Positions 1,136 to 37,634 of a stretch of 37,921 nt of DNA are shown piece by piece. The number at the start of each line of letters is the position of its first letter. Within the stretch, counting starts at the first letter, position 1. The position numbers were made by a program, and so were the translations under genes. The notes beneath the pieces are model-generated. The model worked only from the letters and a program-made list of their open reading frames with translations, had not been told where the DNA came from and made no database searches. The stretch is from a virus (taxonomy: Duplodnaviria > Heunggongvirae > Uroviricota > Caudoviricetes), in the IMG/VR virus record IMGVR_UViG_2734482770_000007. One strand, given 5' to 3'.

Positions 1136-2812
1136 CTAAGCAACATGTAGTTCATCGTTGGCGGAAGTGGCTGCTTTGCGCTCCTGCTCAATAGCTAGAG
1201 ACTCTCTATATTCTTTCGCCTCTGCAAACATTGTCCAGTGGGCGTTGATGTTCATGTCTTCAATAACTGATTTGATTTCTTTTAAATTTACGTTAAAAAA
1301 CTCTTTTCGTGAGTTAATTTTATTGACCTGCTTTTCGTTGAAAACTTTATGCAGATGGTTTTCTAATGATGGTGCATCATCACTATAAATCATCGCATGA
1401 ACATCGAACGAAAAAGGAACACTAGCATCTCCGAGTTCACGAACACGATCAAGTGGTTCAAGGCGGCGTGTCATTCCAATTTTATATACATCTTCGCCAA
1501 ATGAACCAATATTACTAATGATATAGACGTGGCCTGATCTGGTTTGTTGAGCCATAGAAATAGCTCGTTGATTTTTAGCTTCAGCTTCTTCATATTTTAA
1601 CTGTAGTTCAGCTATTTTTTGCTCTAAAGCTAAGCGTTGTTCTTCATTTGCAAGCATAAGTTCTTTCGTTGCTTTATTTATAGCTTGCTGAATAGCTTTT
1701 TCTTCTTTTTCAGCTTCTTTTATCGCTTTTTCATATTCTCTACGAGCTCTTTCCTCTTCACGAAGCTGTTCTTTAATCCTTCTTTGCTCTTCTTTTTCTT
1801 CGAGCATAATTTCATTAACTGCTACACCCCATTTTAGCTCGTTGAGTCTTGCCTGAAGATAGATGTCACTTATTTTTGCGGACCTAAAGGCAGAGCCATT
1901 GTAATTTACTAGTTGAAATGCATCTTTTATTTCTTGGGAAAGTTTTCCAAAATTGTTGTGTTTGACTTTTGATAAAATACTGTCAACTCTTCCATTGAAG
2001 GCATCCAAAACAAAGTTTATGGCAGTATTACGCCTGTTTTGCTCAACATAATCACACGAAGCAGCTTTATTAGTTTTTATTAATGATTTGGTTAACTCTC
2101 TGGCTTTTTGTAATTCCTTGCCTGCATCTGTAAATTCATAATTTTCTGCCAGCTCATCAAGTACACTACGGTTAGGGATGATCCATTCATCACCATAACC
2201 TTCAATTTTATTTTTCATTGATTTTGCAACTGCTTCATATTTTTCTGCAAACTCTTTAGCTTCATATGCTGAACCAGCAATCTCCTTTGCTCTTTCTTCT
2301 GCATCAGAAATAATTTTTACTGCATTGTCATTAGCATTTGAGATTAGCTCATTTGCTTTATTATTAGCATTATCAAGACGTTCTTTGGCTTTCAGGCGTG
2401 CATCGCGAGCGTCTTTGGTGATTGCTATAGCTTCGCTATTAGCGTTGCTTATTGTCATCTGAGCTTGATAATTTGCTTCGTTTACTGTTTTAGCCGCCTT
2501 AATTTGGGCTTCATCTATTTTTTGCTTGGCTATTGAGTCCGCATTTTTTATCTTATTCTCTGCATCCATTACTGCGCTGTGCAATTCTTCGTATTGCCAC
2601 AATGGTGCTGCTCGCCCTTCAAGCTCTGATAATTCTCGTACGGTCTGTGCTAGTTTTTCTTGATTTTCAATCAGTTGGTTAGAAAGGGCTATGTTGTTAG
2701 CTGTCAGGTTATCTATAGCCGCTTTGTGTTTTTTACTTTGTTTAAATAATATTACAGCTAGAACAGGGGCGAGAAATGCTAATAAGAGTATAACGATGGC
2801 AAATGAATTCAT
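1136..2812 (-). CDS. Cargo (moron) protein: N-terminal transmembrane helix, long coiled coil, C-terminal T5orf172/GIY-YIG-like domain (DUF4041-type architecture)
   Basis: 558-aa ORF; N-terminus FAIVILLLAFLAPVLAVILF is hydrophobic; central region is Ala/Lys/Glu-rich heptad-like; C-terminus has GHVYIISN...YKIGMT resembling GIY-YIG/T5orf172 motifs. Visibly AT-rich versus backbone. Inserted between cI and int where 186/P2 have no gene. Confidence 0.6.
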   Translation of the reverse strand: MNSFAIVILLLAFLAPVLAVILFKQSKKHKAAIDNLTANNIALSNQLIENQEKLAQTVRELSELEGRAAPLWQYEELHSAVMDAENKIKNADSIAKQKIDEAQIKAAKTVNEANYQAQMTISNANSEAIAITKDARDARLKAKERLDNANNKANELISNANDNAVKIISDAEERAKEIAGSAYEAKEFAEKYEAVAKSMKNKIEGYGDEWIIPNRSVLDELAENYEFTDAGKELQKARELTKSLIKTNKAASCDYVEQNRRNTAINFVLDAFNGRVDSILSKVKHNNFGKLSQEIKDAFQLVNYNGSAFRSAKISDIYLQARLNELKWGVAVNEIMLEEKEEQRRIKEQLREEERARREYEKAIKEAEKEEKAIQQAINKATKELMLANEEQRLALEQKIAELQLKYEEAEAKNQRAISMAQQTRSGHVYIISNIGSFGEDVYKIGMTRRLEPLDRVRELGDASVPFSFDVHAMIYSDDAPSLENHLHKVFNEKQVNKINSRKEFFNVNLKEIKSVIEDMNINAHWTMFAEAKEYRESLAIEQERKAATSANDELHVA

Positions 2813-2832: not shown

Positions 2833-3429
2833 TTAATTCGAGACTATTGTACTTCTTATACAAGCAACCACTTCAATATCAGAAAATGCACATTCAAAGC
2901 TATTCTCTGCTGTTGTAATTTTAATCATTCCTTTAGGAAGCCTTGTGATTTTTCGAATGGAATAGGTTCCGTCGATATTGATTAACCAGTTTCCATCAAG
3001 TACTTCAGAAAATTTTTGATCACAAATGTATGTGACGAGTCCATCCTGAACAACAATTGGTGATGAAAGGTTTGCAGGAAGAAATGATGAATCGAAGACA
3101 TATGAACCGTCTTCAATCATTTTGCCTGCGGCAAGGCGAAACTTAACAAGCTCTTCTGTAGCTGCTGTCAGCGAGCTTTGCTTAAGGCCTTGTCCGGTAG
3201 TTAACCATTTGAGGGAGGTTCCTGTTTCAAGAGCACATTGGATTATCCAGTCAGCAGGAAATGTATCCCGCAAATACCTGTTCGCTAGTGTGCTTTTTGA
3301 TACTTCCAAGTGATCAGCTAAAGCCTGTCGTGTCGTAAAGCCATAGGCTTCGACTAATCGCTCAATCGCAGCCTTACCACCTTTATTGGGATTTATTTTG
3401 ATCTCACTTGGGTACTTTGATGTTGACAT
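2833..3429 (-). CDS. cI: CI-type immunity repressor (186 CI-like, two-domain)
   Basis: 198-aa ORF, same strand and directly upstream of int operon, divergent from apl/cII; size matches 186 CI (about 192 aa) not the small P2 C; N-terminal HTH-like region. Confidence 0.8.
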   Translation of the reverse strand: MSTSKYPSEIKINPNKGGKAAIERLVEAYGFTTRQALADHLEVSKSTLANRYLRDTFPADWIIQCALETGTSLKWLTTGQGLKQSSLTAATEELVKFRLAAGKMIEDGSYVFDSSFLPANLSSPIVVQDGLVTYICDQKFSEVLDGNWLINIDGTYSIRKITRLPKGMIKITTAENSFECAFSDIEVVACIRSTIVSN

Positions 3430-4295: not shown

Positions 4296-4592
4296 ATGCT
4301 GACGAAAGAACCATCATTTGCATCGCTGCTGGTAAAACAAAGCCCGGCAATGCACTACGGTCACGGCTGGATCACGGGTGAGGATGGAAAACGCTGGCAT
4401 CCATGTCATTCACAAGATGAATTGCTGTCTGAATTGACCACGAGGAAACGGAGAAAGTCCAAATGTATGCGGCAGAAAGTGAAGTGGTTTATCAGTTTCG
4501 TTACAGAGGGGAGAGTTATTCAGTACCTGAAGGTGATTTGCTCTGTTGCTATCCGTCATTGTCGGGCGATGGCAGTTACTTTTTCACGTTAA
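4296..4592 (+). CDS. Hypothetical early protein (possibly real only to about 4465; 3' part overlaps next ORF)
   Basis: ATG 4296 with upstream TGAGG; ORF overlaps 4463..4687 by about 130 nt in a different frame; C-terminal part looks like read-through. Confidence 0.3.
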   Translation: MLTKEPSFASLLVKQSPAMHYGHGWITGEDGKRWHPCHSQDELLSELTTRKRRKSKCMRQKVKWFISFVTEGRVIQYLKVICSVAIRHCRAMAVTFSR

Positions 4593-4687
4593 AGGATGGG
4601 ACGTTTTTACGGGGAGAGCAGGTTAAAGAGACGATACGAAAAAATGTATCTCCTCTTGAGCGTTACCGTAAGAACAAAGAACGATAG
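4463..4687 (+). CDS. Hypothetical early protein
   Basis: 74-aa ORF with GGAGAAAG Shine-Dalgarno about 8 nt upstream of ATG 4463. Confidence 0.4.
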   Translation: MYAAESEVVYQFRYRGESYSVPEGDLLCCYPSLSGDGSYFFTLKDGTFLRGEQVKETIRKNVSPLERYRKNKER

Positions 4688-4709
4688 CTGCGTTTGGGGG
4701 ATATGAAGT

Positions 4710-5051
4710 ATGGCAATTAATGGCGCTGCAGCAACTGTTCCATTAAGCCCCGGTGAACGCCTGAATGGACTTAATCACATTGCGGAGTTAAGGGCGAAAG
4801 TTTTTGGCCTGAATATTGAGTCAGAGCTTGAGCGGTTTATTAAAGATATGCGTGATCCACGGGATATCAATAATGAACAAAATAAACGGGCACTGGCTGC
4901 CATATTCTTTATGGCAAAAATTCCAGCTGAACGTCATAGCATCAGCATTAATGAGCTGACCACTGACGAAAAGCGGGAGCTGATTAAAGCAATGAATCAT
5001 TTTCGTGCAGTGGTGAGCTTATTTCCCAGACGGCTAACCATGCCGAATTAA
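4710..5051 (+). CDS. Hypothetical early protein
   Basis: 113-aa ORF, GGGGGA upstream of ATG; same strand and spacing as early operon. Confidence 0.5.
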   Translation: MAINGAAATVPLSPGERLNGLNHIAELRAKVFGLNIESELERFIKDMRDPRDINNEQNKRALAAIFFMAKIPAERHSISINELTTDEKRELIKAMNHFRAVVSLFPRRLTMPN

Positions 5052-5118
5052 CCAACTAATGAAATTAATGGCGTAAACCCGCCGGGCATCCCTTTATCTA
5101 AATTCAGGAGAATTGATT

Positions 5119-5352
5119 ATGCGTAATATTGAAACCCTCACGACTAAAACCGGACCGGATGACGCAGGGCTTAATATTTTACTGACAGAGGCTCGTCTGG
5201 AAGAACGCCGGGCAAGGGCTGAAGCAATGGCTGCTCGCCTTGATAGCCTGGCGTGTCATATCTCATCCCGCCAGCTAAACCACGTGGAAGCGGCAGAACT
5301 GCTGCGCGTGACTGCTGAAGCAATCCAGAACGAAGCGCAGGAGATCCACTAA
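5119..5352 (+). CDS. Hypothetical early protein
   Basis: ATG 5119 preceded by AGGAG (5106-5110); stop overlaps next start (TAATG). Confidence 0.5.
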   Translation: MRNIETLTTKTGPDDAGLNILLTEARLEERRARAEAMAARLDSLACHISSRQLNHVEAAELLRVTAEAIQNEAQEIH

Positions 5353-5579
5353 TGGCTGATGCAATGGATCTCGTACAGCAGCGCGTTGAAGAAGAACGCC
5401 AGCGCCATATCCGTGCAGCCCGTGCCAAATCACCGGGCGTGTCACGCGTACTTTGCATTGAATGTGAAGCGCCAATTCCGCCAGCACGACGCCGCGCCAT
5501 TCCGGGAGTGCAGCTTTGCATTACCTGTCAGGAAATCGCAGAACTGAAAGGCAAACATTACAACGGAGGTGCTGTATGA
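5352..5579 (+). CDS. TraR/DksA-family C4 zinc-finger protein
   Basis: 75-aa ORF with CIECEAPIP...CITCQ (Cys-x2-Cys ... Cys-x2-Cys); start overlaps upstream stop and stop overlaps dam start (ATGA). Confidence 0.6.
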   Translation: MADAMDLVQQRVEEERQRHIRAARAKSPGVSRVLCIECEAPIPPARRRAIPGVQLCITCQEIAELKGKHYNGGAV

Positions 5580-6433
5580 GCACCATCCTGAAATGGGCGG
5601 GAAATAAAACCGCCATTATGCCAGAACTGAAAAAATACCTTCCTGCTGGCCCGCGACTGGTTGAACCTTTCGCGGGTTCCTGTGCTGTGATGATGGAAAC
5701 GGATTATCCCAGCTATCTGGTTGCGGATATTAATCCTGATTTAATCAACCTCTATAAAAAGGTTGCCGCTGATTGTGAATCGTTTATATCTCGCGCCAGA
5801 GTTTTATTTGAGATCGCAAACAGGGAGGTGGCTTATTACAACATAAGGCAGGAGTTTAACTGCTCAACTGAAATTACTGATTTCATGAAAGCGGTATATT
5901 TCCTGTATCTCAATCGTCACGGTTACCGTGGTTTATGTCGCTATAACAAGAGCGGGCATTTCAACATTCCCTACGGTAATTATAAAAATCCGTATTTCCC
6001 TGAAAAAGAACTTCGCACATTTGCAGAAAAAGCCCAGCGAGCAACGTTTATCTGCGCCAGCTTTGATGAAACGCTGGCGATGTTGAAGGCGGGAGATGTG
6101 GTGTATTGCGATCCGCCATATGACGGTACGTTTTCCGGCTATCACACTGATGGTTTCACTGAAGATGACCAGTATCACCTGGCATCCGTTCTTGAACATC
6201 GGTCATCAGAAGGACATCCGGTCATTGTTTCTAACAGTGACACATCCCTGATCCGTTCGCTGTATCGCAATTTTACTCACCACTATATCAAGGTAAAACG
6301 CAGCATCGGTGTGGCAGCTGGCGAGGGTAAATCAGCAACAGAAATCATTGCTGTTTCCGGGCCGCGCTGCTGGATGGGATTTGATTATTCGCGTGGCGTG
6401 GATAGTTCTGCCGTGTACGGAGTACGTGCATGA
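5576..6433 (+). CDS. dam: DNA adenine methyltransferase (Dam family, orphan)
   Basis: N-terminus ILKWAGNK...LVEPFAGS (AdoMet motif I) and catalytic DPPY (CDPPYDG) read directly; GGAGGT upstream of ATG 5576; no restriction endonuclease gene adjacent. Confidence 0.85.
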
Positions 6434-8844
6434 GTCATGCCGATATGAACAACTGCTGCGGCTTTAACGAGGCTGCCGCAGCATTCTCATGGAACAGCCC
6501 GAAAAAGGCCATTAACCCTTATCTGGACCCGGCGGAAGTTGCGCCGGTTTCTACGCTTTCAAACCTGATCACTCTGTACGCTGCCGATAACGAGCAGGAA
6601 CAGTTGCGCCGCGAGGCACTGAGTGATCAGGTCTGGGAGCGTTATTTCTTTAATGAATCACGTGATCCTGTCCAGCGCGAAATGGAGCAGGATAAGCTCA
6701 TTAGCCGGGCAAAGCTGGCGCATGAGCAGCAGCGTTTTAATTCAGACATGGTCATTCTGGCGGACGTCAACGCCCAGCCTTCCCATATCAGCAAGCCGCT
6801 GATGCAACGTATTGAATACTTCAGCAGCCTGGGCAGGCCAAAGGCTTATTCCCGCTATTTACGTGAGACGATTAAGCCATGTCTGGAACGACTGGAGCAT
6901 GTACGCGACAGTCAGCTATCTGCATCTTTTCGCTTTATGGCAAGCCATGAAGGGCTGGACGGCCTGCTGATCCTGCCTGAAATGAGTCAGGATCAGGTGA
7001 AACGCCTGTCCACCTTGGTAGCTGCGCATATGAGTATGTGCCTTGATGCAGCTTGTGGTGATTTGTATGCCACCGATGACGTTAAGCCAGAAGAAATCCG
7101 CAAGACATGGGAAAAGGTGGCAGCGGAAACCCTGCGTCTGGATGTCATCCCACCTGCGTTTGAGCAACTCCGTCGGAAAAGAAACCGCCGTAAACCCGTG
7201 CCGTATGAACTCATTCCGGGTTCGCTGGCGCGTATGTTGTGCGCCGACTGGTGGTATCGGAAATTATGGAAGATGCGTTGCGAATGGCGGGAAGAGCAGT
7301 TGCGCGCTGTTTGCCTGGTCAGCAAAAAAGCATCTCCTTATGTCAGCTATGAAGCCGTGATGCATAAACGTGAGCAGCGCCGTAAGTCGCTGGAGTTTTT
7401 CCGTTCTCATGAACTGGTGAACGAAGACGGCGACACGCTGGACATGGAGGATGTGGTAAACGCCAGCAGCAGCAACCCTGCGCATCGCCGCAATGAGATG
7501 ATGGCCTGTGTTAAAGGTCTGGAGCTTATCGCGGAAATGCGCGGTGACTGCGCCGTTTTCTACACTATCACCTGTCCGTCGCGTTTCCATTCCACGCTAA
7601 ATAACGGCAGACCAAACCCGACCTGGACAAACGCGACGGTAAGACAAAGCAGCGATTATCTGGTCGGCATGTTTGCTGCATTTCGTAAGGCGATGCACAA
7701 AGCCGGGTTGCGCTGGTATGGCGTGCGGGTGGCTGAGCCGCATCATGATGGCACAGTTCACTGGCACCTGTTGTGTTTCATGCGCAAAAAAGACCGCCGT
7801 GCCATCACTGCATTACTGCGTAAGTTTGCCATCCGTGAAGACCGCGAGGAGCTGGGCAATAACACTGGGCCGCGCTTTAAGTCTGAGTTGATTAACCCGC
7901 GCAAAGGAACGCCGACAAGCTACATCGCGAAATATATCAGTAAGAACATTGACGGTCGTGGTCTGGCTGGCGAGATCAGCAAGGAAACGGGTAAATCTCT
8001 GCGTGATAACGCTGAATACGTGAATGCCTGGGCGTCTCTGCATCGTGTTCAGCAATTCCGCTTCTTTGGTATTCCGGGGCGTCAGGCTTACCGTGAACTT
8101 CGCTTGCTGGCTGGTCAGGCGGCAAGGCAACAGGGTGACAAAAAAGCAGGTGCGCCGGTACTGGATAACCCGCGTCTTGATGCCATTCTGGCTGCTGCTG
8201 ATGCTGGTTGTTTTGCCACCTACATCATGAAGCAGGGCGGCGTACTGGTTCCCCGTAAATATCACCTCATCAGAACCGCTTATGAAATCAACGAAGAGCC
8301 GACCGCCTATGGCGATCACGGCATTCGTATTTATGGCATCTGGTCACCCATTGCAGAGGGCAAGATCTGCACTCATGCAGTGAAGTGGAAAATGGTTCGT
8401 AAAGCCGTTGACGTTCAGGAGGCGGCAGCCGACCAGGGCGCTTGCGCCCCTTGGACTCGTGGCAATAACTGTCCCCTTGCTGAAAATTTGTACCAACAAG
8501 GGAAAGACAAATCAGCTGATGGGGATACCAGAACGGATATCACCCGCATGGATGACAAGGAATTGCACGATTACCTGCACAGTATGAACAAAAAAGAGCG
8601 TCGGGAACTGGCTGCAAGGTTACGCCTGGTGAAACCGAAACGGCGTAGAGACTACAAACAGCGAATTACAGATCATCAGCGACAGCAGCTCGTCTATGAA
8701 CTGAAGTCCAGAGGATTTGATGGCAGCGAGAAAGAGGTCGATTTACTCCTTCGCGGCGGCAGCATTCCGTCAGGAGCAGGCCTGCGTATTTTCTATCGGA
8801 ACCAGCGTTTGCAGGAAGATGATAAGTGGCGGAACCTGTATTAA
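6430..8844 (+). CDS. A: Rolling-circle replication initiator (P2/186 gene A family)
   Basis: 804-aa ORF with metal-binding motif [11 protein letters not shown] (HUH-type) and Tyr-containing YIAKYISKN region; start overlaps dam stop (ATGA). Confidence 0.9.
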
Positions 8845-8938
8845 TTACGCGGGTTAACAATTCGTGCTCTTAATAATACCAGGTATATCAGGCTGATGAA
8901 CGTAAAAAAACGTTTTACATCAGTAAGATTATTATATA

Positions 8939-8954
8939 CTGTAAATATAAACAG
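8939..8954. promoter_or_regulatory. LexA (SOS) box CTGT-N8-ACAG
   Basis: TACTGTAAATATAAACAGTG read directly; close match to LexA consensus TACTGT(AT)4ACAGTA; 44 bp upstream of ATG 8998. Confidence 0.6.
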
Positions 8955-8997
8955 TGGTTATGCATACAGTATTGCTTGTGGTGTCATAGGAGGAAAG

Positions 8998-9186
8998 ATG
9001 CAGGACTATTTTTTGGAGTCTTTGAAGCTCCAGCGCATTGATTTTTTTCTTAAGCTTGTAGCGGCTAGTGAGTGTAGTGATGAAGAGAAGGGGCTGGCCC
9101 TGCAGTGGGTTTCTGAACTGACAGATGAACTCATGGCAAAAATCAGAACCCACGAATACAACCGCTCAATGGATGTCATCAGCTGA
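8998..9186 (+). CDS. Small SOS-controlled protein, possibly Tum antirepressor N-terminal module
   Basis: 62-aa ORF from ATG 8998 with AGGAGG Shine-Dalgarno; directly downstream of LexA box; position matches 186 tum. Confidence 0.45.
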   Translation: MQDYFLESLKLQRIDFFLKLVAASECSDEEKGLALQWVSELTDELMAKIRTHEYNRSMDVIS

Positions 9187-9196
9187 GGTGACTTTT

Positions 9197-9430
9197 ATGC
9201 GCATTGAAATAATGATCGATAAAGAGCAGAAGATTAGCCAGTCTACCCTGGACGCCCTTGAATCCGAGCTTTACCGCAATCTGCGCCCCCTGTATCCCAA
9301 AACGGTAATTCGCATTCGCAAAGGTAGCTCTAACGGTGTGGAACTGACCGGACTGCAACTGGACGAAGAAAGGAAGCAAGTGATGAAAATTATGCAGAAG
9401 GTGTGGGAAGACGACAGCTGGCTGCATTAA
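9197..9430 (+). CDS. DinI-like protein
   Basis: 77-aa product MRIEIMIDK...DALESEL...WEDDSWLH aligns by eye with E. coli DinI (MRIEVTIAK...DALAGEL...WESADDW); GAGGTG upstream of ATG 9197. Confidence 0.75.
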   Translation: MRIEIMIDKEQKISQSTLDALESELYRNLRPLYPKTVIRIRKGSSNGVELTGLQLDEERKQVMKIMQKVWEDDSWLH

Positions 9431-9460
9431 GAAACGTTGCCCCCAAGAGGATTCATTCTG

Positions 9461-9631
9461 ATGGGGGACTATTTTGGGCAACGAGTGAAACGAGGCGTTA
9501 GGTGGACGGCCATTTTGATAAGTGATCGTCCGCTTTTTGTTCTGAGTTCAAGCGATGGATTTAACACACTGGTTGAAGCAGAAGTATCTAAGTTCAATTT
9601 ATATTATTTGAAGGGCACTGGTCTGATGTAG
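9461..9631 (+). CDS. Hypothetical small protein in hotspot
   Basis: 56-aa ORF from ATG 9461 with AAGAGGA Shine-Dalgarno; track lists a longer version from 9437 (non-ATG start). Confidence 0.3.
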   Translation: MGDYFGQRVKRGVRWTAILISDRPLFVLSSSDGFNTLVEAEVSKFNLYYLKGTGLM

Positions 9632-9717
9632 TACGATTTTTGCCGGAGATGGCATGTTCTATATTGATCTCATCCATATAATGATTGGTATTATTAGCTT
9701 AGTTTAAAGAGGATTGA

Positions 9718-11295
9718 ATGGATATCAACTATGTTGTTTCAAAAATGGGGTTCGTAGATGATCTTATTAATGCAGGTTCATTTGATTCTGCCTATAAAAA
9801 TGTAAAGGATATTCTTAACGGTATCGATGAGATAAATACAATCAAAGAAAATAGAATAATTATATTATCTAATTTGGCCGGAAATCTTATTGATATCGGA
9901 AGTTTTAGTAATGTAAAAAATATAGCGGAGGAAGGCTTAAATATCTTTATAAACAATAAAAATGAATTTCTGACTATAATGAAAGAATCCTTATATTACT
10001 ATAACTTGGCAAATGGAATGAGCGCAGTTCTTGATTTTAATCCTAATGACAATGCAGATATTGATAGTTTCATTAAGCTGAATGATGTAAAAAATAATTA
10101 CTGGAAAGCGTTTAAACTTTCACAAGAAGATGGATGGGTGCCCCCTGATTTAATAGTTAATCTAGCTAATGTATTAAAAAAACAATATCGTATATCTGAA
10201 TCAATGGATTATTATGAACAAGCAATATCTATTGATAACTCAATTCCTCAGGCGTGGGTAAACAGATCTGAGGCATTAGAATTGCTTAATGAATTATCTA
10301 CAACATATACATATAAAATGATTAAAGAAGTTATTCGAGGTTATGAGTGTGCAATAAAGTCAGGGAAATGTTTTCCTTCATGGAAGGTTGCTCTTCAAAG
10401 AAAAATAAAGTACAACGAAAGTATATTGAGTGAATCATGTGTATATGGCATAGAGGATATAAGTACAGATGAAAGGCTCACGCAGGAGGAGTATGATACT
10501 TTATCAAACTACCAGAGGTTTTGTATAGATAATAATCTAATGTTGTCTGATCATTCGCTATATTGCAATTGTTATGCGTCATCTAAAGATAATATAACTA
10601 TTGCTACCACCGAGGAAGGTGTGTTTGGTGATTTTATAGTGCCAATGGAAATGGTGTTAAATAGACTTAAAGCTGAGTATTCCTTAGCACGAAAAATGTT
10701 TTTTGAATATAAGGTTGATAGTGAGTTTTTTGATGAGGATTCGGAGGTATGTTATTCTGAATTGTATAATGGAGAAATATTGTATGAAAATGTTGAGAAG
10801 TTAAGGGTTGCATTTAGAGCTTGCTTTGGTATCTTGGATAAAATAGCAGTTGCTCTGTGTCAATTATTTGATTTAAAACCAGATAGAGGACATATATACT
10901 TTCATAACTTCTGGCGGATTAGTGATGAAAAAAGAAAGCTTAAAATAAACAAAATAAATAATAAAGGATTGCTGGGTTTGTTTAGTATTGCTATGGATTT
11001 GAATGATAAAAATGGTGAGCTTGCTTTTTTTAAAGAATGGAGGAATGATTTAGAACATAAACTGTTAGTTATTCACGAGAAAGACATGTTAGTTGATTTA
11101 TATAATTCTTATGGGTTTTTTGATGAGGTGAGGTTTATTGAGAAAGAAAAGTTTGAGAAACAGCTCTTACAACTCATGAAAATTGTGAGATCAGCCGTTA
11201 TTCTTTTTGTGTTTACCATACGTATAGAGGGGAAAAAAAGTATTCCTAAAGATATGTTGACCATTAAAAATACCATCGAGAGAAAAGTATTGTAG
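9718..11295 (+). CDS. Cargo protein of unknown function; TPR-like N-terminal region, C-terminal HEPN-like Rx4H motif
   Basis: 525-aa ORF, strongly AT-rich by eye; AAGAGGA-like SD (AAAGAGGATTGAATG); helical repeat-like segment YYEQAISIDNSIPQAWVNRSEALELL; C-terminal EWRNDLEHK fits HEPN R-x4-H; followed by hairpin tcatcg-agc-cgatga plus T-run. Confidence 0.7.
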   Translation: MDINYVVSKMGFVDDLINAGSFDSAYKNVKDILNGIDEINTIKENRIIILSNLAGNLIDIGSFSNVKNIAEEGLNIFINNKNEFLTIMKESLYYYNLANGMSAVLDFNPNDNADIDSFIKLNDVKNNYWKAFKLSQEDGWVPPDLIVNLANVLKKQYRISESMDYYEQAISIDNSIPQAWVNRSEALELLNELSTTYTYKMIKEVIRGYECAIKSGKCFPSWKVALQRKIKYNESILSESCVYGIEDISTDERLTQEEYDTLSNYQRFCIDNNLMLSDHSLYCNCYASSKDNITIATTEEGVFGDFIVPMEMVLNRLKAEYSLARKMFFEYKVDSEFFDEDSEVCYSELYNGEILYENVEKLRVAFRACFGILDKIAVALCQLFDLKPDRGHIYFHNFWRISDEKRKLKINKINNKGLLGLFSIAMDLNDKNGELAFFKEWRNDLEHKLLVIHEKDMLVDLYNSYGFFDEVRFIEKEKFEKQLLQLMKIVRSAVILFVFTIRIEGKKSIPKDMLTIKNTIERKVL

Positions 11296-11617
11296 TATAT
11301 TTTCATCGAGCGATGAAACGGTCTGTTTTTCTTTATAGTTTTGTCATAAAAAAGAGATTTCCTGCTTAAAATTTGGCTATTACAGAGCAACTATGTATGT
11401 TCCTCGCTCACAGTAGAGCTTCATCTTTGTAAGTCTGTATGTTTCGTTTTTCAAGTGGTCATTCAGATACGGACTTTCACTTCTCTTAGACAGTGCATGA
11501 CTATGCTGCATGAAATCGCATGATCGTTTAAGGATCGTTTTTGCTAAGGCTCGCCAGAACTAGCGGGCTTTTACGTAGAACATGCAGGTGCATGAAAACC
11601 ACTACATAAAGCGGGCA

Positions 11618-11636
11618 GGCGTGGCGGGGATACGAG
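11618..11636 (+). other. Candidate cos (cohesive end) core
   Basis: GGCGTGGCGGGGATACGAG followed by GCGCGC resembles my recollection of the P2 19-nt cohesive end GGCGAGGCGGGGAAAGCAC; located in a 546-bp noncoding region adjacent to the portal-terminase operon, oriented as in P2. Confidence 0.3.
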
Positions 11637-11841
11637 CGCGCACTCTGGGGTAAAATGGTCAAAATCCACCGCAATTTACTGGCTCGGGAACGTAGTTAGT
11701 TTTGTAGGTATAAACGGCTCTCACGTTAGATAGGCATGCAGGATGTGTTAAATCGTTGTGATGAAGTTAACGGTGACTGAGACAGTTTAGGTCTAAGATA
11801 TAACTTCTGGGTTAGTTAAAAATTGGAATAGTAAGACATTT

Positions 11842-12138
11842 ATGAAAACTACTTATAGCTATGATTTTCAATATATGCGCAAAGGTCAGGATCGCCCTGA
11901 TGATGATGGAGAGGTTGTAGGGTGTAATTCAGAAGACAACTCGCTTTTGATGCTTCCAAATGTGGGAGACTACGTAACAATTACGAATAAGGGTGGGCGT
12001 GCTCAATTTGATGGGCGGGTGAAAACAAGGCTTTTCAATTACCTACGCATTGCTGATGGTCATGTTCATTGCTCCATTTGCATTGTAGTTGAGGAAGTTG
12101 ATATGGACTCCGTATGGGGGGCACTAATTAAAGAATAA
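11842..12138 (+). CDS. Hypothetical protein between cos and portal gene
   Basis: 98-aa ORF, no recognisable motifs; P2 has no gene at this position; followed by hairpin terminator. Confidence 0.5.
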   Translation: MKTTYSYDFQYMRKGQDRPDDDGEVVGCNSEDNSLLMLPNVGDYVTITNKGGRAQFDGRVKTRLFNYLRIADGHVHCSICIVVEEVDMDSVWGALIKE

Positions 12139-12144
12139 TAGAAT

Positions 12145-12160
12145 GCCTGCAAATGCAGGC
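12145..12160. terminator. Bidirectional hairpin between convergent 98-aa ORF and portal gene
   Basis: gcctgc-aaat-gcaggc perfect stem; T-rich on plus side (gctttaattt). Confidence 0.45.
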
Positions 12161-12168
12161 GCTTTAAT

Positions 12169-13209
12169 TTACTCAGAAATATCTAAGTTGTAAGATTCAA
12201 AGCAAATCACTTTTTCACCTAGCCAGTTGTTCAGCTCTTGCAGCCGCTTTTGCAGTGGCATCAGTTCATTGCGGACAAACACTCGACTAGCCTTCTCCAC
12301 ATCCCCAAACCCCCCGACATTATTAGGCATTATCCCCATCATTTGTGGCGGCACACGATGCGCCGCCATCATGTCGTCCCGGCTCACGTTCTTGATATTC
12401 AGGAACTCATCCTTCGCCGCCACTTCTGACAACGGGATAATCTGAAGCCCGTCCTTTTTACCGTTAGGCGAGTACATAAACAGGTTACGGAAGTTACCAG
12501 GACCTTTGGCGCTTTTCATCGCATTGCGGAGGTTGTTCACATCCTCCTGGTTCTGCGCAGCATCGGTCATGTACATGATGAAGCCTGCATGACTGCCGTT
12601 AATGTAATACTTGCGGCGGAACAGCGTGGCGGACTCGTTGAGCAGAGCTGACGGAATGGCAGAAAGATAACCGGGCAGGCCGTAGATCTCCTGGTTAATG
12701 TCCGGTTCCATTAGATGAAAAATGCTGCCTTTCGTGAACTGATACGGCTGGGTTGTCATACCGTATTGCACAAACCAGTAGGTATCCAGGTCTAACCCGC
12801 GTCGGGTGTATTTTGCCAGTGCAGGCTCAAGGGCGATAACTTCACCGAAGCGGTTCGTGCGTTTCTCCAGGTAGGCGTTACCAAAAACCAGATAGTCCTG
12901 CACAAAACGCGAAAAAGCCTGCTGGCTGAGCAGCGGGTGAGGGATGTAGGTGCTGGTCAGAATGTTGCACTTCACTGCAATCGGTGAGCTGTGATGCACG
13001 GCGGCGCGGAAGGTTCGCGCCAGTCCGTCGAAACTCACAGGCGGCTCATACCAACGATCCATCTGTACGCATTCCACATAGTCCAGCAGTTCGCGGCGGT
13101 CCAGAACAGGAACGGGATCACCGAAGCTGAATGCTTCGGCTGAAGTCTGGCTTTTATGCTGGATCTGTTTCGTCGACGCAGCGCGGTTCTTCTTACTCTT
13201 TCCCATCAA
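12169..13209 (-). CDS. Q: Portal protein (P2 gpQ family)
   Basis: 346 aa (P2 Q about 344 aa); leftward, upstream partner of terminase in a Q-P operon divergent from O-N-M-L. Confidence 0.9.
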   Translation of the reverse strand: MMGKSKKNRAASTKQIQHKSQTSAEAFSFGDPVPVLDRRELLDYVECVQMDRWYEPPVSFDGLARTFRAAVHHSSPIAVKCNILTSTYIPHPLLSQQAFSRFVQDYLVFGNAYLEKRTNRFGEVIALEPALAKYTRRGLDLDTYWFVQYGMTTQPYQFTKGSIFHLMEPDINQEIYGLPGYLSAIPSALLNESATLFRRKYYINGSHAGFIMYMTDAAQNQEDVNNLRNAMKSAKGPGNFRNLFMYSPNGKKDGLQIIPLSEVAAKDEFLNIKNVSRDDMMAAHRVPPQMMGIMPNNVGGFGDVEKASRVFVRNELMPLQKRLQELNNWLGEKVICFESYNLDISE

Positions 13210-14972
13210 AAAATCTCCACAATATTGCTGGTATTGGCGGACTCGCCCTGCAGCGGTTCGTTAAACAGTGCGTGCATTGTTGCCCAGGCCAGATCGGCAT
13301 GGCTGGCTTCTTCGCTGCGGCTGGCTTCATAGGTCGGGCGGTTGCCACTGGCAGTGGTAGCGCGACGGATTGCCATAAATGACTGCGCAATGTCGGTGTG
13401 CCCGGCGTCAAACTCCAGACGGCGGTGGCTGATAATGTCGTAGGCCTTGAGTACCAGGGCGTTTTTAACGTTGGGGTTGTAGACAAACTCCCTGACGGCA
13501 GGAAAAAACGCTTTCACGTTCTCGTAAACCCCGTGACCGACGCCGGTCGAGTCGATGCCGATATAGGTCACGTTGTACTGTTCGGTCAGTTTTTTGATGG
13601 CGTCAGCCTGGGCGCGGAAGTCCATCCCGCGCCACTGGTGACGCTCAAGAATGCGGAACTTACCACCCGGCACGGCTGGCGGAGCCACCACCACGCATCC
13701 GGCACTATCGCCGTTCTGCGTACCTTTTGCCGGGTCATAACCGATCCACACCTCGCGCCAGCCAAACGGGCGCAGCGCCAGTGCATGAAAGTCGGTCCAG
13801 ACTTCCCAGCTGTCCACCATGCACGCCTGCAGCTCGCTGAGCGGAAACACGGACGCGAGATCGTCCACAAACTCGCACATCAGCAGGTTCTGGTATTCGT
13901 CCGGGCTGTACTCCATGCGCAACTGGTCAAGGTCGAACAGGTTACAGCCGCCGCGCACCGCATCTTCCACGGTGACTATCTGGCGGTATTGCCCGTCTGC
14001 GCACAGCAGGCCGGGGGCCAGATTGCTGTGGGACAGGTCGATGTCCACCTTATCGGCTTTGTTGCGCCCACGGTTGAACAGCGCACCGGACCAGAACGGA
14101 TAAGCACTGTGTGTCAGACTGGATGGCGTGGAAAAATAGGTTTGTCGCCATTTTTTGTGAATAGCCATACCGGAAGCCACTTTGCGCAGCTCCTGGAATT
14201 TCGGTATCCAGAAATATTCATCCAGATACAGGTTGCCGTGGTAACTCTGGGCCGTGCGGGCATTGGTGCCGAGGAAGTAAAGCGTGGCCCCGTTAGGAAG
14301 CACCATCGGATCGCCTTTCAGCTCCACCTCCACTTCTTTGGCAAAGTCGATGATGTACTGTTTAAAGACGTGAGCCTGAGCCTTGCTGGCAGAAAGGAAA
14401 ATCTGGTTACGCCCGGTCAGCAGGGCGTCAATCAGGGCTTCACGGGCAAAGTAAAAGGTCGCGCCGATCTGGCGAGACTTCAGCAGGTTGCGGATGCGAT
14501 TGGTTTTTCCGGCTTCCCACCAGTGGCGCTGGTAGTTGAACATGGAGGAATGGAAGATTTCTTCCAGCTTCTCAATCTGTTCATCGGTGAAAACATTCTT
14601 TTCCGGCTGACGGCGCGGGCCTTTGTTGCGGTTGGCGACGTTAGGGTTTAAGTCGGCTTCGTTGCCGCCATTGTTAAACTTGCCGATGCGCGCGTGGCGC
14701 TCCGACTGGCGCGCCAGCAGGTCAATCTCTTTGAAATCTTTCCCTTCTTTGTGCTCCTTCATAATGAGCTGGCAGTAGCGTGCGGCGGTGGTGAGCTGCA
14801 TCTGATCCAGCGGCCCATAGTCACCCCACTTGTCGCGTTTTTTCCAGCTATGAACGGTTGCAACTTTCTCGCCCAGCATTTCAGCAATGCGGGCGACGCG
14901 GTATCCCTGAAAGTACAGCAGCATGGCCTGCCGACGGGGATCGAGATCTGCGGGTGTCAGTGTGGTGTTCAT
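13206..14972 (-). CDS. P: Terminase large (ATPase) subunit (P2 gpP family)
   Basis: 588 aa (P2 P about 590 aa); overlaps portal start by 4 nt; divergent from scaffold gene. Confidence 0.9.
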   Translation of the reverse strand: MNTTLTPADLDPRRQAMLLYFQGYRVARIAEMLGEKVATVHSWKKRDKWGDYGPLDQMQLTTAARYCQLIMKEHKEGKDFKEIDLLARQSERHARIGKFNNGGNEADLNPNVANRNKGPRRQPEKNVFTDEQIEKLEEIFHSSMFNYQRHWWEAGKTNRIRNLLKSRQIGATFYFAREALIDALLTGRNQIFLSASKAQAHVFKQYIIDFAKEVEVELKGDPMVLPNGATLYFLGTNARTAQSYHGNLYLDEYFWIPKFQELRKVASGMAIHKKWRQTYFSTPSSLTHSAYPFWSGALFNRGRNKADKVDIDLSHSNLAPGLLCADGQYRQIVTVEDAVRGGCNLFDLDQLRMEYSPDEYQNLLMCEFVDDLASVFPLSELQACMVDSWEVWTDFHALALRPFGWREVWIGYDPAKGTQNGDSAGCVVVAPPAVPGGKFRILERHQWRGMDFRAQADAIKKLTEQYNVTYIGIDSTGVGHGVYENVKAFFPAVREFVYNPNVKNALVLKAYDIISHRRLEFDAGHTDIAQSFMAIRRATTASGNRPTYEASRSEEASHADLAWATMHALFNEPLQGESANTSNIVEIF

Positions 14973-20483: not shown

Positions 20484-20922
20484 ACTGCAGAAAGTGGACG
20501 ACTGGCTGAGTGCCTTGCTGGCGAATCTGGAGCCAGCCGCAAGAAGCCGCATGATGCGCCAGCTGGCGCAGGAACTGCGCCGGATACAGCAGCAGAACAT
20601 CAGGATGCAACGCAATCCAGATGGCAGTAGTTATGAACCGCGACGGGTAACAGCACGCAGTAAAAAGGGGCGCATCAAACGTCAGATGTTTGCAAAGCTG
20701 CGAACCACAAAATACCTGAAAACTGCCGCCAGCGCCGATTCTGCCAGCGTGCAGTTTGAAGGCAAGGTACAGCGCATTGCCCGTGTTCACCATTACGGCT
20801 TGCGTGATCGCGTCAGCCGTAAGGGGCCACAGATACGTTATGCTAAACGTAGGTTACTTGGAATTTATGATACTGATTTTGATATTATAGAAGAGATAAT
20901 CATAAATTTTTTGATTCGTTAG
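20476..20922 (+). CDS. S: Tail completion protein (P2 gpS family)
   Basis: 148 aa; synteny and size; 3' end overlaps convergent cargo gene. Confidence 0.75.
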   Translation: MAELQKVDDWLSALLANLEPAARSRMMRQLAQELRRIQQQNIRMQRNPDGSSYEPRRVTARSKKGRIKRQMFAKLRTTKYLKTAASADSASVQFEGKVQRIARVHHYGLRDRVSRKGPQIRYAKRRLLGIYDTDFDIIEEIIINFLIR

Positions 20923-22081
20923 ATTCATTAATTTTCTTAAAGTATGAGTCTATTTTTTCAATTAATAAATTGATGCTTTTTATAAATTCTTTTGTTTCTT
21001 TCTCTGTTGGTTCATGTGATGTATGAGCTATTTTGTCACGTAATTCTTTCCTGTTTTTATTTGCATGTTGCCACTCAAGTGGCGCAATTTCGGGTACAGA
21101 GATGTTAAAGAGTTGTTTGAATAGTTTTTTACATCTATCATCGAACTTCCAGTTTTTATTTAATGTTTCTTTTGTCTGGCATTCATTGATACCATTGCGA
21201 TGAAAGGCATTAATAATTTTTCTGAGAATATAGCTTTCAAGGCCTGCTGATGCTTCAATTACGGCTGATCTAAATGCACCTTTATGAACAAGATTGTCTG
21301 CTCTAATCAATAATAGTTCAGGATGTTCATTGAATTCATTTGACATTAAACGTTTTTTGAAATTATCAATGAGACTTTCATCGTGTTTATACCAGCTTTC
21401 TCTCATTAATGGGGTGATTACTCCAACTAAAGGAATTGCACTTATCTTAATACCATCGCAATAATGCTCTTGTAACACTCCGTTGGTAAATCCTGAGCCA
21501 ACTTGATAAAGAGATATCTCGTCTGCAAATTGATCTTTAAAGGCAACTCTATACTGTTTTATAAAGTGGTTTATTATTCCGATACATTCCTCTGATCTTT
21601 TAGGTGGAAATATCTCTCTAGCAGTTTTTATTTTTCTCTCTAACTCTATTTTTTTATCTATATCTTGCTGGCTCATTTTGGATAGGAGCATCTCAGCATC
21701 TTCCACAGATGGGAAGTTATCTTCTTTCCTTATTTGGTTTCTTATAGAGTTGATTAGTTCTTCATGTGATATTTCTAAAAGGTCAAAACATTCCCAATAG
21801 TTGGCGAGAGAAATAATAGTCCGGCATTTCATTATCCCTCTTTCATTTGTGTGATGTGGTAGTAGTTGTTCTCTGGTACCGATTAATAGGGTTTGAGGGA
21901 ATAAGCTTGCATCTTTAAATAGTGCATAGTAATCGTTGTGAACTGTTAAGCGTAAATGGTTATTTTCATATAGAAAATCATAATCACCATCTGGAATATT
22001 GAGGACATAAGGCAACTCGACCAAGTAACGTGCAGCAAAGATCATTTCAGTCATCTCCATATGAGAATTCAATTGTGCCAA
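20900..22081 (-). CDS. Cargo protein of unknown function in the S-V (orf30-equivalent) locus; C-terminal HEPN-like Rx4H motif
   Basis: 393-aa ORF, strongly AT-rich by eye, antisense to flanking late genes; C-terminal KELRDKIAHTSHEP fits R-x4-H; no other recognisable motif. Confidence 0.7.
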   Translation of the reverse strand: MAQLNSHMEMTEMIFAARYLVELPYVLNIPDGDYDFLYENNHLRLTVHNDYYALFKDASLFPQTLLIGTREQLLPHHTNERGIMKCRTIISLANYWECFDLLEISHEELINSIRNQIRKEDNFPSVEDAEMLLSKMSQQDIDKKIELERKIKTAREIFPPKRSEECIGIINHFIKQYRVAFKDQFADEISLYQVGSGFTNGVLQEHYCDGIKISAIPLVGVITPLMRESWYKHDESLIDNFKKRLMSNEFNEHPELLLIRADNLVHKGAFRSAVIEASAGLESYILRKIINAFHRNGINECQTKETLNKNWKFDDRCKKLFKQLFNISVPEIAPLEWQHANKNRKELRDKIAHTSHEPTEKETKEFIKSINLLIEKIDSYFKKINESNESKNL

Positions 22082-35301: not shown

Positions 35302-36987
35302 TTATCCTAATCCTGGCCATACCATGACGATGATTGTCCCTGCCAGCGTCAGCAGGACGTTGGCGATTGCGTAGGTGCCCGCATAGCCCAGCGCAGGGAT
35401 GTTACTGCGAGCTGTATCACTGATGATCTCCATTGCCGGCGCGCAGGTGCGTGCGCCCATCATTGCGCCGAACAACAGTGCGCGGTTCATTCGCAATACA
35501 TAAGCACCGAACAAGAAACAGATAACCACGGGCACAAGACTGACAATTAATCCGGCAATCAACATCTGACCGCCAATCGCGCCCAGGCCGTTATTAATAC
35601 CGCTACCGGCGCTCAGACCAACGCCTGCCATAAACACCATCAAGCCGAACTCTTTCACCATGCTTAATGCACCTTGCGGAATGTAACCGAAGGTCGGGTG
35701 GTTAGCACGCATAAAGCCCAGCATAATTCCGGCGAATAACAACCCGGCAGCGTTCCCCATGCCGAAACTGAATGTGCTGAACTGGAAGGTGATCATCCCG
35801 ATCATCAGCCCAATAACAAAGAAGGCGCAGAATGCCAGCAGGTCAGTGACCTGGCTGTGAATCGAGATAAAGCCGATGCGATCGGCGATGGTTTTTACGC
35901 GGCGGGCATCGCCGCTGACTTGTAAAACGTCACCTTTGTTAAGCACGACGTTGTCATCTATCGGCATCTCAATCTGGCTACGAATGACGCGGTTAAGGAA
36001 GCAACCGTGATCGGTCAACTTCAGTTGTGCGAGACGTTTACCTACAGCGTTATGGTTTTTAACGACCACTTCTTCAGTGACGATACGCATGTCGAGAAGG
36101 TCACGATCGAAAACTTCTTTACCGTTACGGAAGCTGGGATCGAGTCGGGCATGGGCGTCGGGATAGCCTACCAACGCTATTTCATCGCCCATTTGTAGCA
36201 CGGCATCACCGTCTGGATTTGCCAGAATCCCGTTACGTCGAATACGTTCAATGTAGCAGCCGGTTTGTCGATAAATACCCAGTTCACGCAGATTTTTGCC
36301 GTCGGTCCAGGCCACCAGTTCCGGGCCGACGCGATAGGCGCGGATCACCGGTAAATAAACCTTACGGTTGGCATCAGTGTCCAGGCCACGTTCGCGGGCG
36401 ATTTGCTGGGCGCTGGTCTGTAAGTCCTGATGCTGCAATTTCGGCAAGTAACGCGCACCAACAATCAAACTCACCAGACCGATTAAATAGGTTAAGGCAT
36501 ACCCGAGGCTCAGATTATCCAGTGCCAGTGAGAGCTGCCTGCTTTCCATGCCGGAATGACGCAGTGTATCGCCAGCACCGACCAGAACCGGTGTCGACGT
36601 CATAGAGCCTGCTAACATACCGGCCGTCAGGCCAATATCCCAGCCAAACAGCTTACCTAACCCTAAGGCGATCACCAGCGCACTGCCAACCATCACCAGT
36701 GCTAACATTAGGTAATTTTTCCCATCGCGAAAAAAAATGGAAAAAAAGTTCGGTCCGGCTTCGACCCCGACGCAGAAAATAAACAGCATAAAGCCAAGAT
36801 TAAGCGCATCGGTGTTAATGCTGAAATGTTGTTGGCCTAATAACAGCGATACGACTAAAACGCCAATGGAATTACCCAGTTGGATCGAACCAAGTCGTAA
36901 CTTTCCGAGACATAGCCCAAGCGCGAGGACCACAAATAATAACAGAATGTAATTCCCATTTAACAATTCGGCGACGTTTATATTCAC
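35302..36987 (-). CDS. ybjL: Putative AAE-family transporter YbjL (two TrkA-C/RCK_C domains)
   Basis: 561-aa polytopic membrane protein; sequence matches my recollection of E. coli YbjL and the ybjL-ybjM-grxA gene order. Confidence 0.85.
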
Positions 36988-37256
36988 GGAGGCTAACTTC
37001 TTGTTTACTAGTAAGCTGTTGAAAGAAATGGTAATTTACGATAATGTTTTTTACCAGAATTCAGGGCGCAGATTCATTCAGCGCACCTAAACGATAGTAA
37101 AGTAACAATATATTTTACTAGTGTAATCACATTAGGTATCAACGGCTATATGAATTGCGTTGGCCTATATTAGCATGGAATGCGAAGCGGCTTTATCTTA
37201 CTGAACGCCACACTGGCGAAAAATGTGTTCGATAGACGCAGTGTCAGGAGGAACGA

Positions 37257-37634
37257 GTGAAACATAAACAACGTTGGGCGGGGGCAATCTGCTGTTTTGT
37301 CCTCTTCATTGTGGTGTGCCTTTTTCTGGCGACGCACATGAAAGGCGCTTTTCGGGCTGCCGGGCATCCTGAAATCGGCTTGCTATTTTTCATTCTTCCT
37401 GGAGCAGTCGCCAGCTTCTTTTCACAGCGTAGAGAAGTCCTGAAACCTCTGTTTGGCGCAATGCTGGCGGCACCCTGTTCGATGCTCATTATGCGGCTGT
37501 TTTTTTCACCGACGCGCTCATTCTGGCAAGAGCTGGCATGGTTACTAAGCGCGGTGTTCTGGTGTGCGCTGGGGGCACTGTGTTTCTTATTTATCAGTAG
37601 TTTGTTTAAACCACAGCACAGAAAAAATCAGTAA
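37257..37634 (+). CDS. ybjM: Inner membrane protein YbjM
   Basis: 125-aa hydrophobic protein between ybjL and grxA, as in E. coli K-12. Confidence 0.75.
   Translation: MKHKQRWAGAICCFVLFIVVCLFLATHMKGAFRAAGHPEIGLLFFILPGAVASFFSQRREVLKPLFGAMLAAPCSMLIMRLFFSPTRSFWQELAWLLSAVFWCALGALCFLFISSLFKPQHRKNQ

Follow-up and report, generated by a model that had tools for sequence, protein, structure and literature searches.

The cohesive-end (cos) sites of phages P2, 186 and P4 (Peduoviridae) give 5' cohesive ends of 19 nt and lie between a replication-side accessory region and the portal gene. A core of approximately 55 bp is conserved in the P2/P4 cos, and longer flanks increase transduction more than 1000-fold (PMC9594776). 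An anti-phage hotspot of P2 has been described that takes up all of the gpA-gpQ interval beside cos (Rousset, Depardieu et al. 2022, Cell Host Microbe; PMC9122126). The IMG/VR virus record IMGVR_UViG_2734482770_000007, a stretch of 37,921 nucleotides referred to here as the window, is, as judged from its sequence, a P2-family prophage of the Fels-2/SEN8 type. Positions 11296 to 12168 of the window comprise a 546-bp noncoding gap followed by a 98-aa open reading frame (ORF), hereafter ORF98, and are enclosed by a gene for a 525-aa HEPN protein and the portal gene. This region is very probably a cos site with two cargo arms, in which ORF98 is an independent cargo gene that shares a bidirectional terminator with the portal operon. 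For the most part, the locus is ordinary and is accounted for by a P2-family cos and the catalogued hotspot arrangement; what the present analysis adds is that a conserved cos block splits the published hotspot into two independently assorting arms. The features of the region are summarized in Table 1.

A preliminary description of this DNA, made from its letters, had pointed out an element resembling the P2/186 cohesive-end sequence. The records of P2 and 186 were each closed by joining the right end to the left end and were then aligned to the window, and the element, GGCGTGGCGGGGATACGAG, was found to stand column for column with the annotated cos of both P2 (GGCGAGGCGGGGAAAGCAC) and 186 (GGCGTGGCGGGGAAAGCAT). 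The upstream flank GGTGCATGAAAACC...AAAGCGGGCA and TGCAT elements farther out also align with the two phages. The first 13 of the 19 bases are shared with the 186 cos, whereas the final six bases are TACGAG here and AAGCAC and AAGCAT in P2 and 186, respectively. The 19-mer fits the P2-family cohesive-end type GGCG(A/T)GGCGGGGA...... and is the consensus of 63 distinct cos regions. All 19 bases are identical to the annotated "putative cos site" (bases 1-19) of Salmonella phage SEN8, a Felsduovirus (PMC5427200); the SEN8 record opens with the 19-mer, and the last base of that record corresponds to position 11617 of the window. Because of this identity, the site is of the Fels-2/SEN8 type and is neither the P2 nor the 186 variant. 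It has the replication/accessory region on one side and the portal-terminase operon on the other, which is the place that cos occupies in P2, 186 and P4.

Conservation around the 19-mer extends well beyond the cohesive ends. The 63 cos regions, compared with the 19-mer as anchor, comprise those of the window, P2, 186, E. coli relatives and species-representative loci, the latter drawn from 80 loci with portal-protein relatives, one genome per species. The columns between -126 and +27, numbered from the first base of cos, are 80-99% conserved, and conservation drops abruptly to a background of approximately 30% on either side. The resulting cos block is the only portion of 11296-12168 that has matches in sequenced phages, and it is carried by approximately 1,272 of the 5,426 complete E. 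coli genomes that were searched here and throughout. The suggestion that the noncoding stretch may hold packaging signals is thereby borne out, in the form of the cos 19-mer and approximately 126 bp of conserved upstream DNA. A signal of approximately 150 bp fits the observation that longer flanks improve transduction (PMC9594776).

Several elements can be recognized within the block. Three direct repeats stand at its left end, where P2 and 186 have TGCAT at the aligned positions, and a fourth repeat, TGCATGA at 11589-11595, lies inside a cos-proximal segment that aligns with GGTGCATTAAAACCGCCCCGTGAAGCGGGCG of P2 and with its equivalent in 186. The repeated motifs had been noticed before and are indeed present: TGCATGA starts at 11494, 11507 and 11589, CGCATGA at 11517, and CATGCAGG occurs twice, at 11581 and 11735. 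Over the whole window, TGCATGA occurs at chance frequency (10 found, 10.0 expected); here three copies fall within 100 bp, and the repeat columns are 80-99% conserved in the 63 cos regions. Because the repeats in the cos block are clustered, conserved and matched by TGCAT at the aligned places of P2 and 186, they are considered functional sequence and not chance occurrences, and by analogy with other cos phages they are putative binding sites of the small terminase subunit. The second copy of CATGCAGG lies in non-conserved, module-specific DNA and is probably due to chance.

A GC-rich, terminator-like hairpin followed by a T-run is placed 50-69 bp to the left of cos. This feature distinguishes the clade from P2, which has no such hairpin; 186 has a 6-bp version. 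The consensus across the 63 cos regions is GCCCGCCAG-loop-CTGGCGGGC-TTTT, with a stem that is kept and a loop that varies; in 58-59 of the 63 regions, pairing is intact at the five inner positions of the stem. The hairpin may act as a terminator and protect cos against read-through, or it may be another protein-binding palindrome. From the observed cos homology and conservation, we infer a course of packaging in the P2/186 style. After induction, the terminase (gpM/gpP homologues) would recognize the approximately 126 bp of conserved sequence towards the replication genes, which includes the four direct TGCATGA-type repeats, the hairpin and the AAAACC...GCGGGCA segment. It would then nick GGCGTGGCGGGGATACGAG in a staggered fashion to give 19-nt cohesive ends.

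The gap as a whole (11296-11841) had been described as free of any ORF of significant length, which is correct: the ORFs that are wholly internal to it reach at most 48 aa and are all on the minus strand, and a 93-aa minus-strand ORF (11109-11390) overlaps its left edge, antisense to the 3' end of the HEPN gene. The gap is not a single element. It consists of three parts, namely the trailer of the HEPN module, the cos block and the leader of the ORF98 module. Positions 11296-11641 are 97.9-100% identical over all 11 HEPN-bearing E. coli genomes (99-100% in most), and the match of these genomes to the window ends 5 bp past cos. Positions 11494-12168 match only two genomes, LR-50 and HCM-26C-1, which have other cargo to the left of cos and are virtually identical to the window to the right of it; where they differ from the window, it is within the left part of the cos block. 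The same segments are reflected in the GC content, which is approximately 30% in the HEPN module, approximately 50% in the cos block, 37-43% in the ORF98 module and approximately 52-58% in the portal/terminase backbone. The assignment of 11296-11491 to the HEPN module and of 11645-11841 to the ORF98 module is based on this mosaic of matches together with the GC pattern. The trailer shows no conservation across the 63 cos regions. The leader is near-identical in the two genomes with the same ORF98 (one difference, in one genome); in diverged ORF98 modules its sequence differs and its length ranges from 97 to 218 nt, with the coding parts conserved.

It had also been proposed that the noncoding stretch holds a structured RNA. 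A structured or small regulatory RNA, encoded besides or in place of packaging signals, would suit a stretch of 546 bp without an ORF in which there are several short inverted repeats and a conserved hairpin with a T-run after it. Nevertheless, this explanation is very unlikely. A scan of 8800-12400 against Rfam gave no match at E<=1, and the minimum free energy z-scores from folding of three sub-regions (+0.09 for the trailer, -0.75 for the leader and -1.0 for the third) do not surpass those of shuffled controls. In addition, the DNA beyond the cos block, including the leader, is unconserved between relatives, and the lone conserved hairpin is accounted for by a terminator or a protein-binding palindrome. 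As to the expression of ORF98, a sigma-70 consensus scan of 11200-12300 gave no match, a search of the ORF98 leader for the Ogr-type motif TGT-N12-ACA found none, and manual inspection of the leader gave weak promoter candidates only. The ribosome-binding site of ORF98 is weak, with no strong Shine-Dalgarno sequence.

The spacing between cos and the portal gene is a further point of comparison with known phages. The region had been called unusually long, which holds in comparison with P2 and 186 (a cos-to-portal spacer of 532 bp in the window, 167 bp in P2 and 176 bp in 186) but not in comparison with relatives. Among 64 species-representative loci with a recognizable cos, the spacer is at most 260 bp in 10, 261-700 bp in 3 and more than 700 bp in 51; it is longer than the P2/186 type (>260 bp) in 54, with a median of 1,686 bp. 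Around cos, relatives normally have gaps of 400-590 bp without coding sequence. The content of the cos-portal slot is different in every relative examined, and its ORFs, nearly always in the direction of ORF98, include TIR, bSEFIR, AbiL, AriA (PARIS), PD-T4-9, Old, KAP NTPase, putAbiC and cytosine methylase. The interval is thus a common cargo slot, usually occupied by defence genes. The earlier view of ORF98 as an additional small cargo gene, inserted at a place that is a mere spacer in P2 and 186, is supported.

ORF98 and the HEPN gene are both inside the gpA-gpQ interval of the published hotspot. Table S5A of that work has the exact arrangement WP_001154434 + WP_001217575 + WP_000354145 + WP_000859244, and Table S5B gives the HEPN protein as single-gene system #100, "HEPN_LA2681/RNPP_C, likely a RNAse", with 33 occurrences; in the portion of the supplement that was examined, ORF98 was not found as a curated or tested system (PMC9122126). 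Whereas that work treats the interval as one hotspot, the two sides of cos behave here as two independently assorting slots. The cos block would serve as a shared recombination anchor between these two independently exchanging cargo slots. The left arm, from the DinI gene to cos, comprises the TPR-HEPN gene and its 196-bp trailer, and the right arm, from cos to the portal terminator, comprises the 197-bp leader, ORF98 and the shared bidirectional terminator.

The independence of the two arms can be seen from the distribution of their genes. An ORF98-family gene is present in 12 of the complete E. coli genomes (2 identical and 10 at 68.7% nucleotide identity) and the HEPN gene in 11, and the two sets have zero overlap. 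Across cos from ORF98-family genes are found a P-loop NTPase, a GAPS4 pair, an HNH protein, DUF6694, HipA_C with HIRAN, and an 86-aa ORF; across cos from the HEPN gene are found a retron Ec67-family reverse transcriptase, a 120-aa ORF, PIN, AIPR, and IS2 with DUF262. At least seven different left-arm partners occur with ORF98-family genes and at least five different right-arm partners with the HEPN gene. In one example, a prophage of E. coli ECCTRSRTH03 (locus L003), the HEPN left arm and cos are identical to those of the window, and the cos-portal slot contains the retron Ec67-family reverse transcriptase/endonuclease (4589-6346 of the locus) instead of ORF98. Two other E. coli contigs, L008 and L010, carry P2-like remnants with large deletions of structural genes in which an ORF98-type gene is retained next to cos; ogr follows almost directly after the portal gene in L008, and L010 has no portal gene.

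Small partner proteins frequently accompany HEPN RNases, and ORF98 and the 525-aa TPR-HEPN protein might form one two-gene system, for example of effector and regulator or antitoxin, that straddles cos, a partnership that the preliminary description had entertained. The genes are adjacent in the window and in one contig listed by Rousset et al. (NZ_PURB01000017), and the ORF98 profile has very weak matches to YefM antitoxins (E 0.06-0.08). Such a system is nonetheless extremely improbable. None of the 5,426 genomes has both genes, each gene meets many different genes across cos, and Rousset et al. give the HEPN protein as a system of one gene. Moreover, the linear genome would separate the two genes, and their GC contents are unlike (30% versus approximately 40%). 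ORF98 is accordingly treated below as a cargo gene separate from the HEPN gene.

ORF98 is, from the comparison of its relatives, a genuine conserved gene, as the earlier description of a 98-aa ORF had implied. Its product is 100% identical to a RefSeq coding sequence of E. coli LR-50, and it is a full-length member of phrog_12676 in PHROGs v4 (E 4.8e-52, residues 1-98 on profile positions 1-97 of 97), a family annotated as of unknown function, so that membership is uninformative on function. Orthologues in the same slot have diverged to 66-85% identity and give ratios of nonsynonymous to synonymous substitution (dN/dS) of 0.08-0.16, which points to purifying selection. A word-indexed search gave 49 homologues, and an exhaustive profile search gave 203 clusters at 50% identity. 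The family, approximately 200 clusters that range from Enterobacterales to Desulfuromonas and Agrobacterium, consists almost entirely of standalone proteins of 90-100 aa, and an alignment of 32 members has 20 invariant positions. Rare longer members have no informative extra domains, and one with a TetR N-terminal domain is probably a gene-call chimera. A tblastn search of ORF98 against 50,697 phage records gave no match, although PHROGs contains the family.

The protein is acidic, with an isoelectric point of 4.9 (family net charge -3.5 to -9.4). A confident AlphaFold (AF2) model has five strands and a C-terminal helix, with a predicted local distance difference test score (pLDDT) of 84 and a predicted template modelling score (pTM) of 0.75. 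ORF98 has no match in Pfam, NCBIfam or PADLOC, and fold searches gave no significant structural neighbours. A Nudix fold and a double-psi beta-barrel were considered and rejected, with no significant similarity and no catalytic Nudix box found; against sequences of the Protein Data Bank, the ORF98 profile gave only a marginal match to designed double-psi beta-barrel proteins, besides noise of the YefM level. A literature search by the ORF98 accessions and the PHROG identifier found no papers, nor did experimental data on anti-phage activity come to light.

Downstream of ORF98, a GC-rich hairpin is flagged by a terminator scan on both strands and would serve both ORF98 and the convergent portal gene. 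In P2 and 186, tQ/tW are annotated at the equivalent site with respect to the portal stop, and the hairpin is kept in diverged ORF98 modules with changes in the loop. P2-like prophages from four genera (Escherichia, Salmonella, Citrobacter and Kosakonia) carry ORF98-family genes between cos and the portal gene, with orientation and terminator hairpin unchanged. Members of the family are also found away from P2-like phages, namely in lambdoid prophages of Klebsiella and Serratia, in an Agrobacterium prophage, in an integrative element, next to IS110 in Desulfuromonas, beside a type I-F CRISPR-associated Tn7-like transposon, and downstream of a TIR/AAA protein. A conserved downstream partner was also considered and rejected, as the genes after the Desulfuromonas and Agrobacterium homologues are mutually unrelated. 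Because of these varied settings and unrelated downstream genes, ORF98 is regarded as a self-contained mobile single gene. The closest homologue outside P2-like phages (83% identity) is in a Klebsiella lambdoid prophage (locus L097, 3767-6975), where it is flanked by a GmrSD and HEPN defence pair and a DinI gene. These are the same kinds of neighbour as in the window on an unrelated phage backbone, which may be a coincidence or a hint of a shared accessory neighbourhood.

ORF98 resembles the genes known as morons or lysogenic-conversion genes, such as old and tin of P2, in being a single gene with its own terminator and a GC content unlike that of the backbone. Like a moron, it is an insertion between conserved phage genes, and a dispensable one, since most relatives lack it. 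Unlike ORF98, which has no recognized domain, old and tin have known exclusion phenotypes and are found on the other side of cos. As a single-gene moron, ORF98 would bind another macromolecule and act as an exclusion or defence factor or as an anti-defence inhibitor. That it is a binding protein in phage-phage or phage-host conflict is a tentative best guess, which we infer from the usual content of the slot, the diversity of the mobile elements that carry the family and the small, acidic, soluble, non-enzymatic character of the protein. The wider proposal, in which the family is a new single-gene conflict protein with an undescribed small beta-rich fold (a minimal exclusion factor or an anti-defence inhibitor in the cos-portal arm) and the two sides of cos are separate, independently recombining hotspots with the packaging site as anchor, is rather doubtful when taken as a whole.

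Alternatively, ORF98 could assist the phage in packaging or head assembly as an accessory or regulatory factor, such as a helper associated with cos or the portal. The recurrence of slot, orientation and terminator hairpin in prophages of four genera, and the purifying selection on the diverged same-slot genes, would be expected of such a factor. It is improbable, however, because most phages with this cos lack the gene and because the family is also found in elements without P2-type packaging genes, namely lambdoid prophages, Tn7-like, IS and integrative elements. Only 12 of the approximately 1,272 E. coli genomes with this cos block have the family, it is present in 0 of the 80 species-representative portal loci, and P2, 186, Fels-2 and SEN8 are all without ORF98.

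A number of points count against the picture of a cos site flanked by two cargo arms, one of which carries a conflict gene. The SEN8 cos is an annotation rather than a mapped end, which makes cleavage at 11618-11636 in this prophage a putative event. The role of the repeats and the hairpin in terminase binding is suggested by conservation, and the hairpin, being imperfect, could be a plain transcription terminator. With no convincing promoter and no strong Shine-Dalgarno sequence, expression of ORF98 is putative. The conflict role is read from the neighbourhood of a protein with neither a PADLOC, Pfam or NCBIfam match nor a significant structural neighbour, and its retention in one slot in several genera is likewise compatible with an accessory role beneficial to the phage.

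Table 1. Positions of the cos region, its elements and the adjoining genes in the window.
Feature	Position	Strand	Basis or remark
19-nt cohesive-end sequence GGCGTGGCGGGGATACGAG (putative cos cleavage region)	11618..11636	+	alignment to P2 cosL and 186 cos; consensus; SEN8 identity
Conserved cos block (153 bp), putative packaging site and terminase-recognition DNA	11492..11644	.	-126 to +27 from first cos base; 63-region comparison
Three direct repeats TGCATGA, TGCATGA, CGCATGA	11494-11500, 11507-11513, 11517-11523	+	conserved columns
Terminator-like hairpin GCTCGCCAG-AA-CTAGCGGGC then TTTT	11549..11572	+	imperfect in window
Cos-proximal conserved segment CATGCAGG-TGCATGA-AAACC...AAAGCGGGCA	11581..11617	+	90-99% column conservation
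Noncoding 3' trailer of HEPN cargo module, AT-rich, 196 bp	11296..11491	+	co-inherited with HEPN gene
Noncoding 5' leader of ORF98 module, 197 bp	11645..11841	+	module comparison
ORF98, 98-aa acidic beta-rich predicted cytoplasmic protein, right-arm cargo, WP_000859244.1	11842..12138	+	phrog_12676
GC-rich hairpin TGCCTGCAAATGCAGGCG, putative bidirectional terminator common to ORF98 and convergent portal gene	12144..12161	.	position of P2 tQ
Left-arm cargo gene, 525-aa TPR + LA2681-type HEPN protein	9718..11295	+	Pfam HEPN_LA2681 1.8e-38; weak TPR matches
Portal gene, gpQ homologue, right anchor of slot	12169..13209	-	Pfam Phage_portal 2.1e-18
Large terminase	13206-14972	-	ORF list, Pfam
gpA-type replication endonuclease, upstream of the region	6430-8844		ORF list, Pfam

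As can be seen in Table 1, the order along the window is gpA, DinI-like gene, cargo, cos, portal and terminase. At 8896-9430, mechanical calling gave two overlapping ORFs of 96 aa and 101 aa that are too long; RefSeq relatives have a 62-aa hypothetical protein (WP_001154434) and a 77-aa DinI-like protein (WP_001217575) in this place, and this pair is the conserved left anchor of the hotspot. RefSeq names the 525-aa protein "LA2681 family HEPN domain-containing protein" (WP_000354145) and labels homologues of the 12169-13209 product "phage portal protein".

Other parts of the prophage also carry accessory genes. Between the integrase (1-1053) and the CI repressor (2833-3429) lies a 558-aa DUF4041 + T5orf172/MUG113 protein (1136-2812, minus strand) that matches the PD-Lambda-1 defence protein in PADLOC (2.4e-120), and this is a second cargo/defence slot of the same prophage. 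A 393-aa ORF on the opposite strand (20900-22081, minus) is found within the late tail-gene region, at what is presumably the site of the nonessential orf30-type insert of P2; scans against Pfam and PADLOC gave no confident match, and the position may be a third cargo slot. At the right prophage junction (35302-37634) are the host genes for an Asp-Al_Ex/TrkA_C permease and YbjM. The same host neighbourhood borders P2-like prophages in loci L008-L011 and is therefore a commonly used attachment region.

The present results fix the cos site and its functional extent of approximately 150 bp for the large Fels-2-type clade of P2-like prophages, which is of value for annotation. An intergenic region that had appeared as a mystery is explained as a packaging site together with the untranslated ends of two cargo modules. 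For the delimitation of systems, it follows that genes on opposite sides of cos should not be presumed to be partners. The compact and strongly constrained 98-aa family, which recurs among defence genes on mobile elements, offers a cheap candidate for defence or anti-defence. For defence biology in P2-like prophages, the published gpA-gpQ hotspot is really two slots that are parted by cos and shuffle independently.

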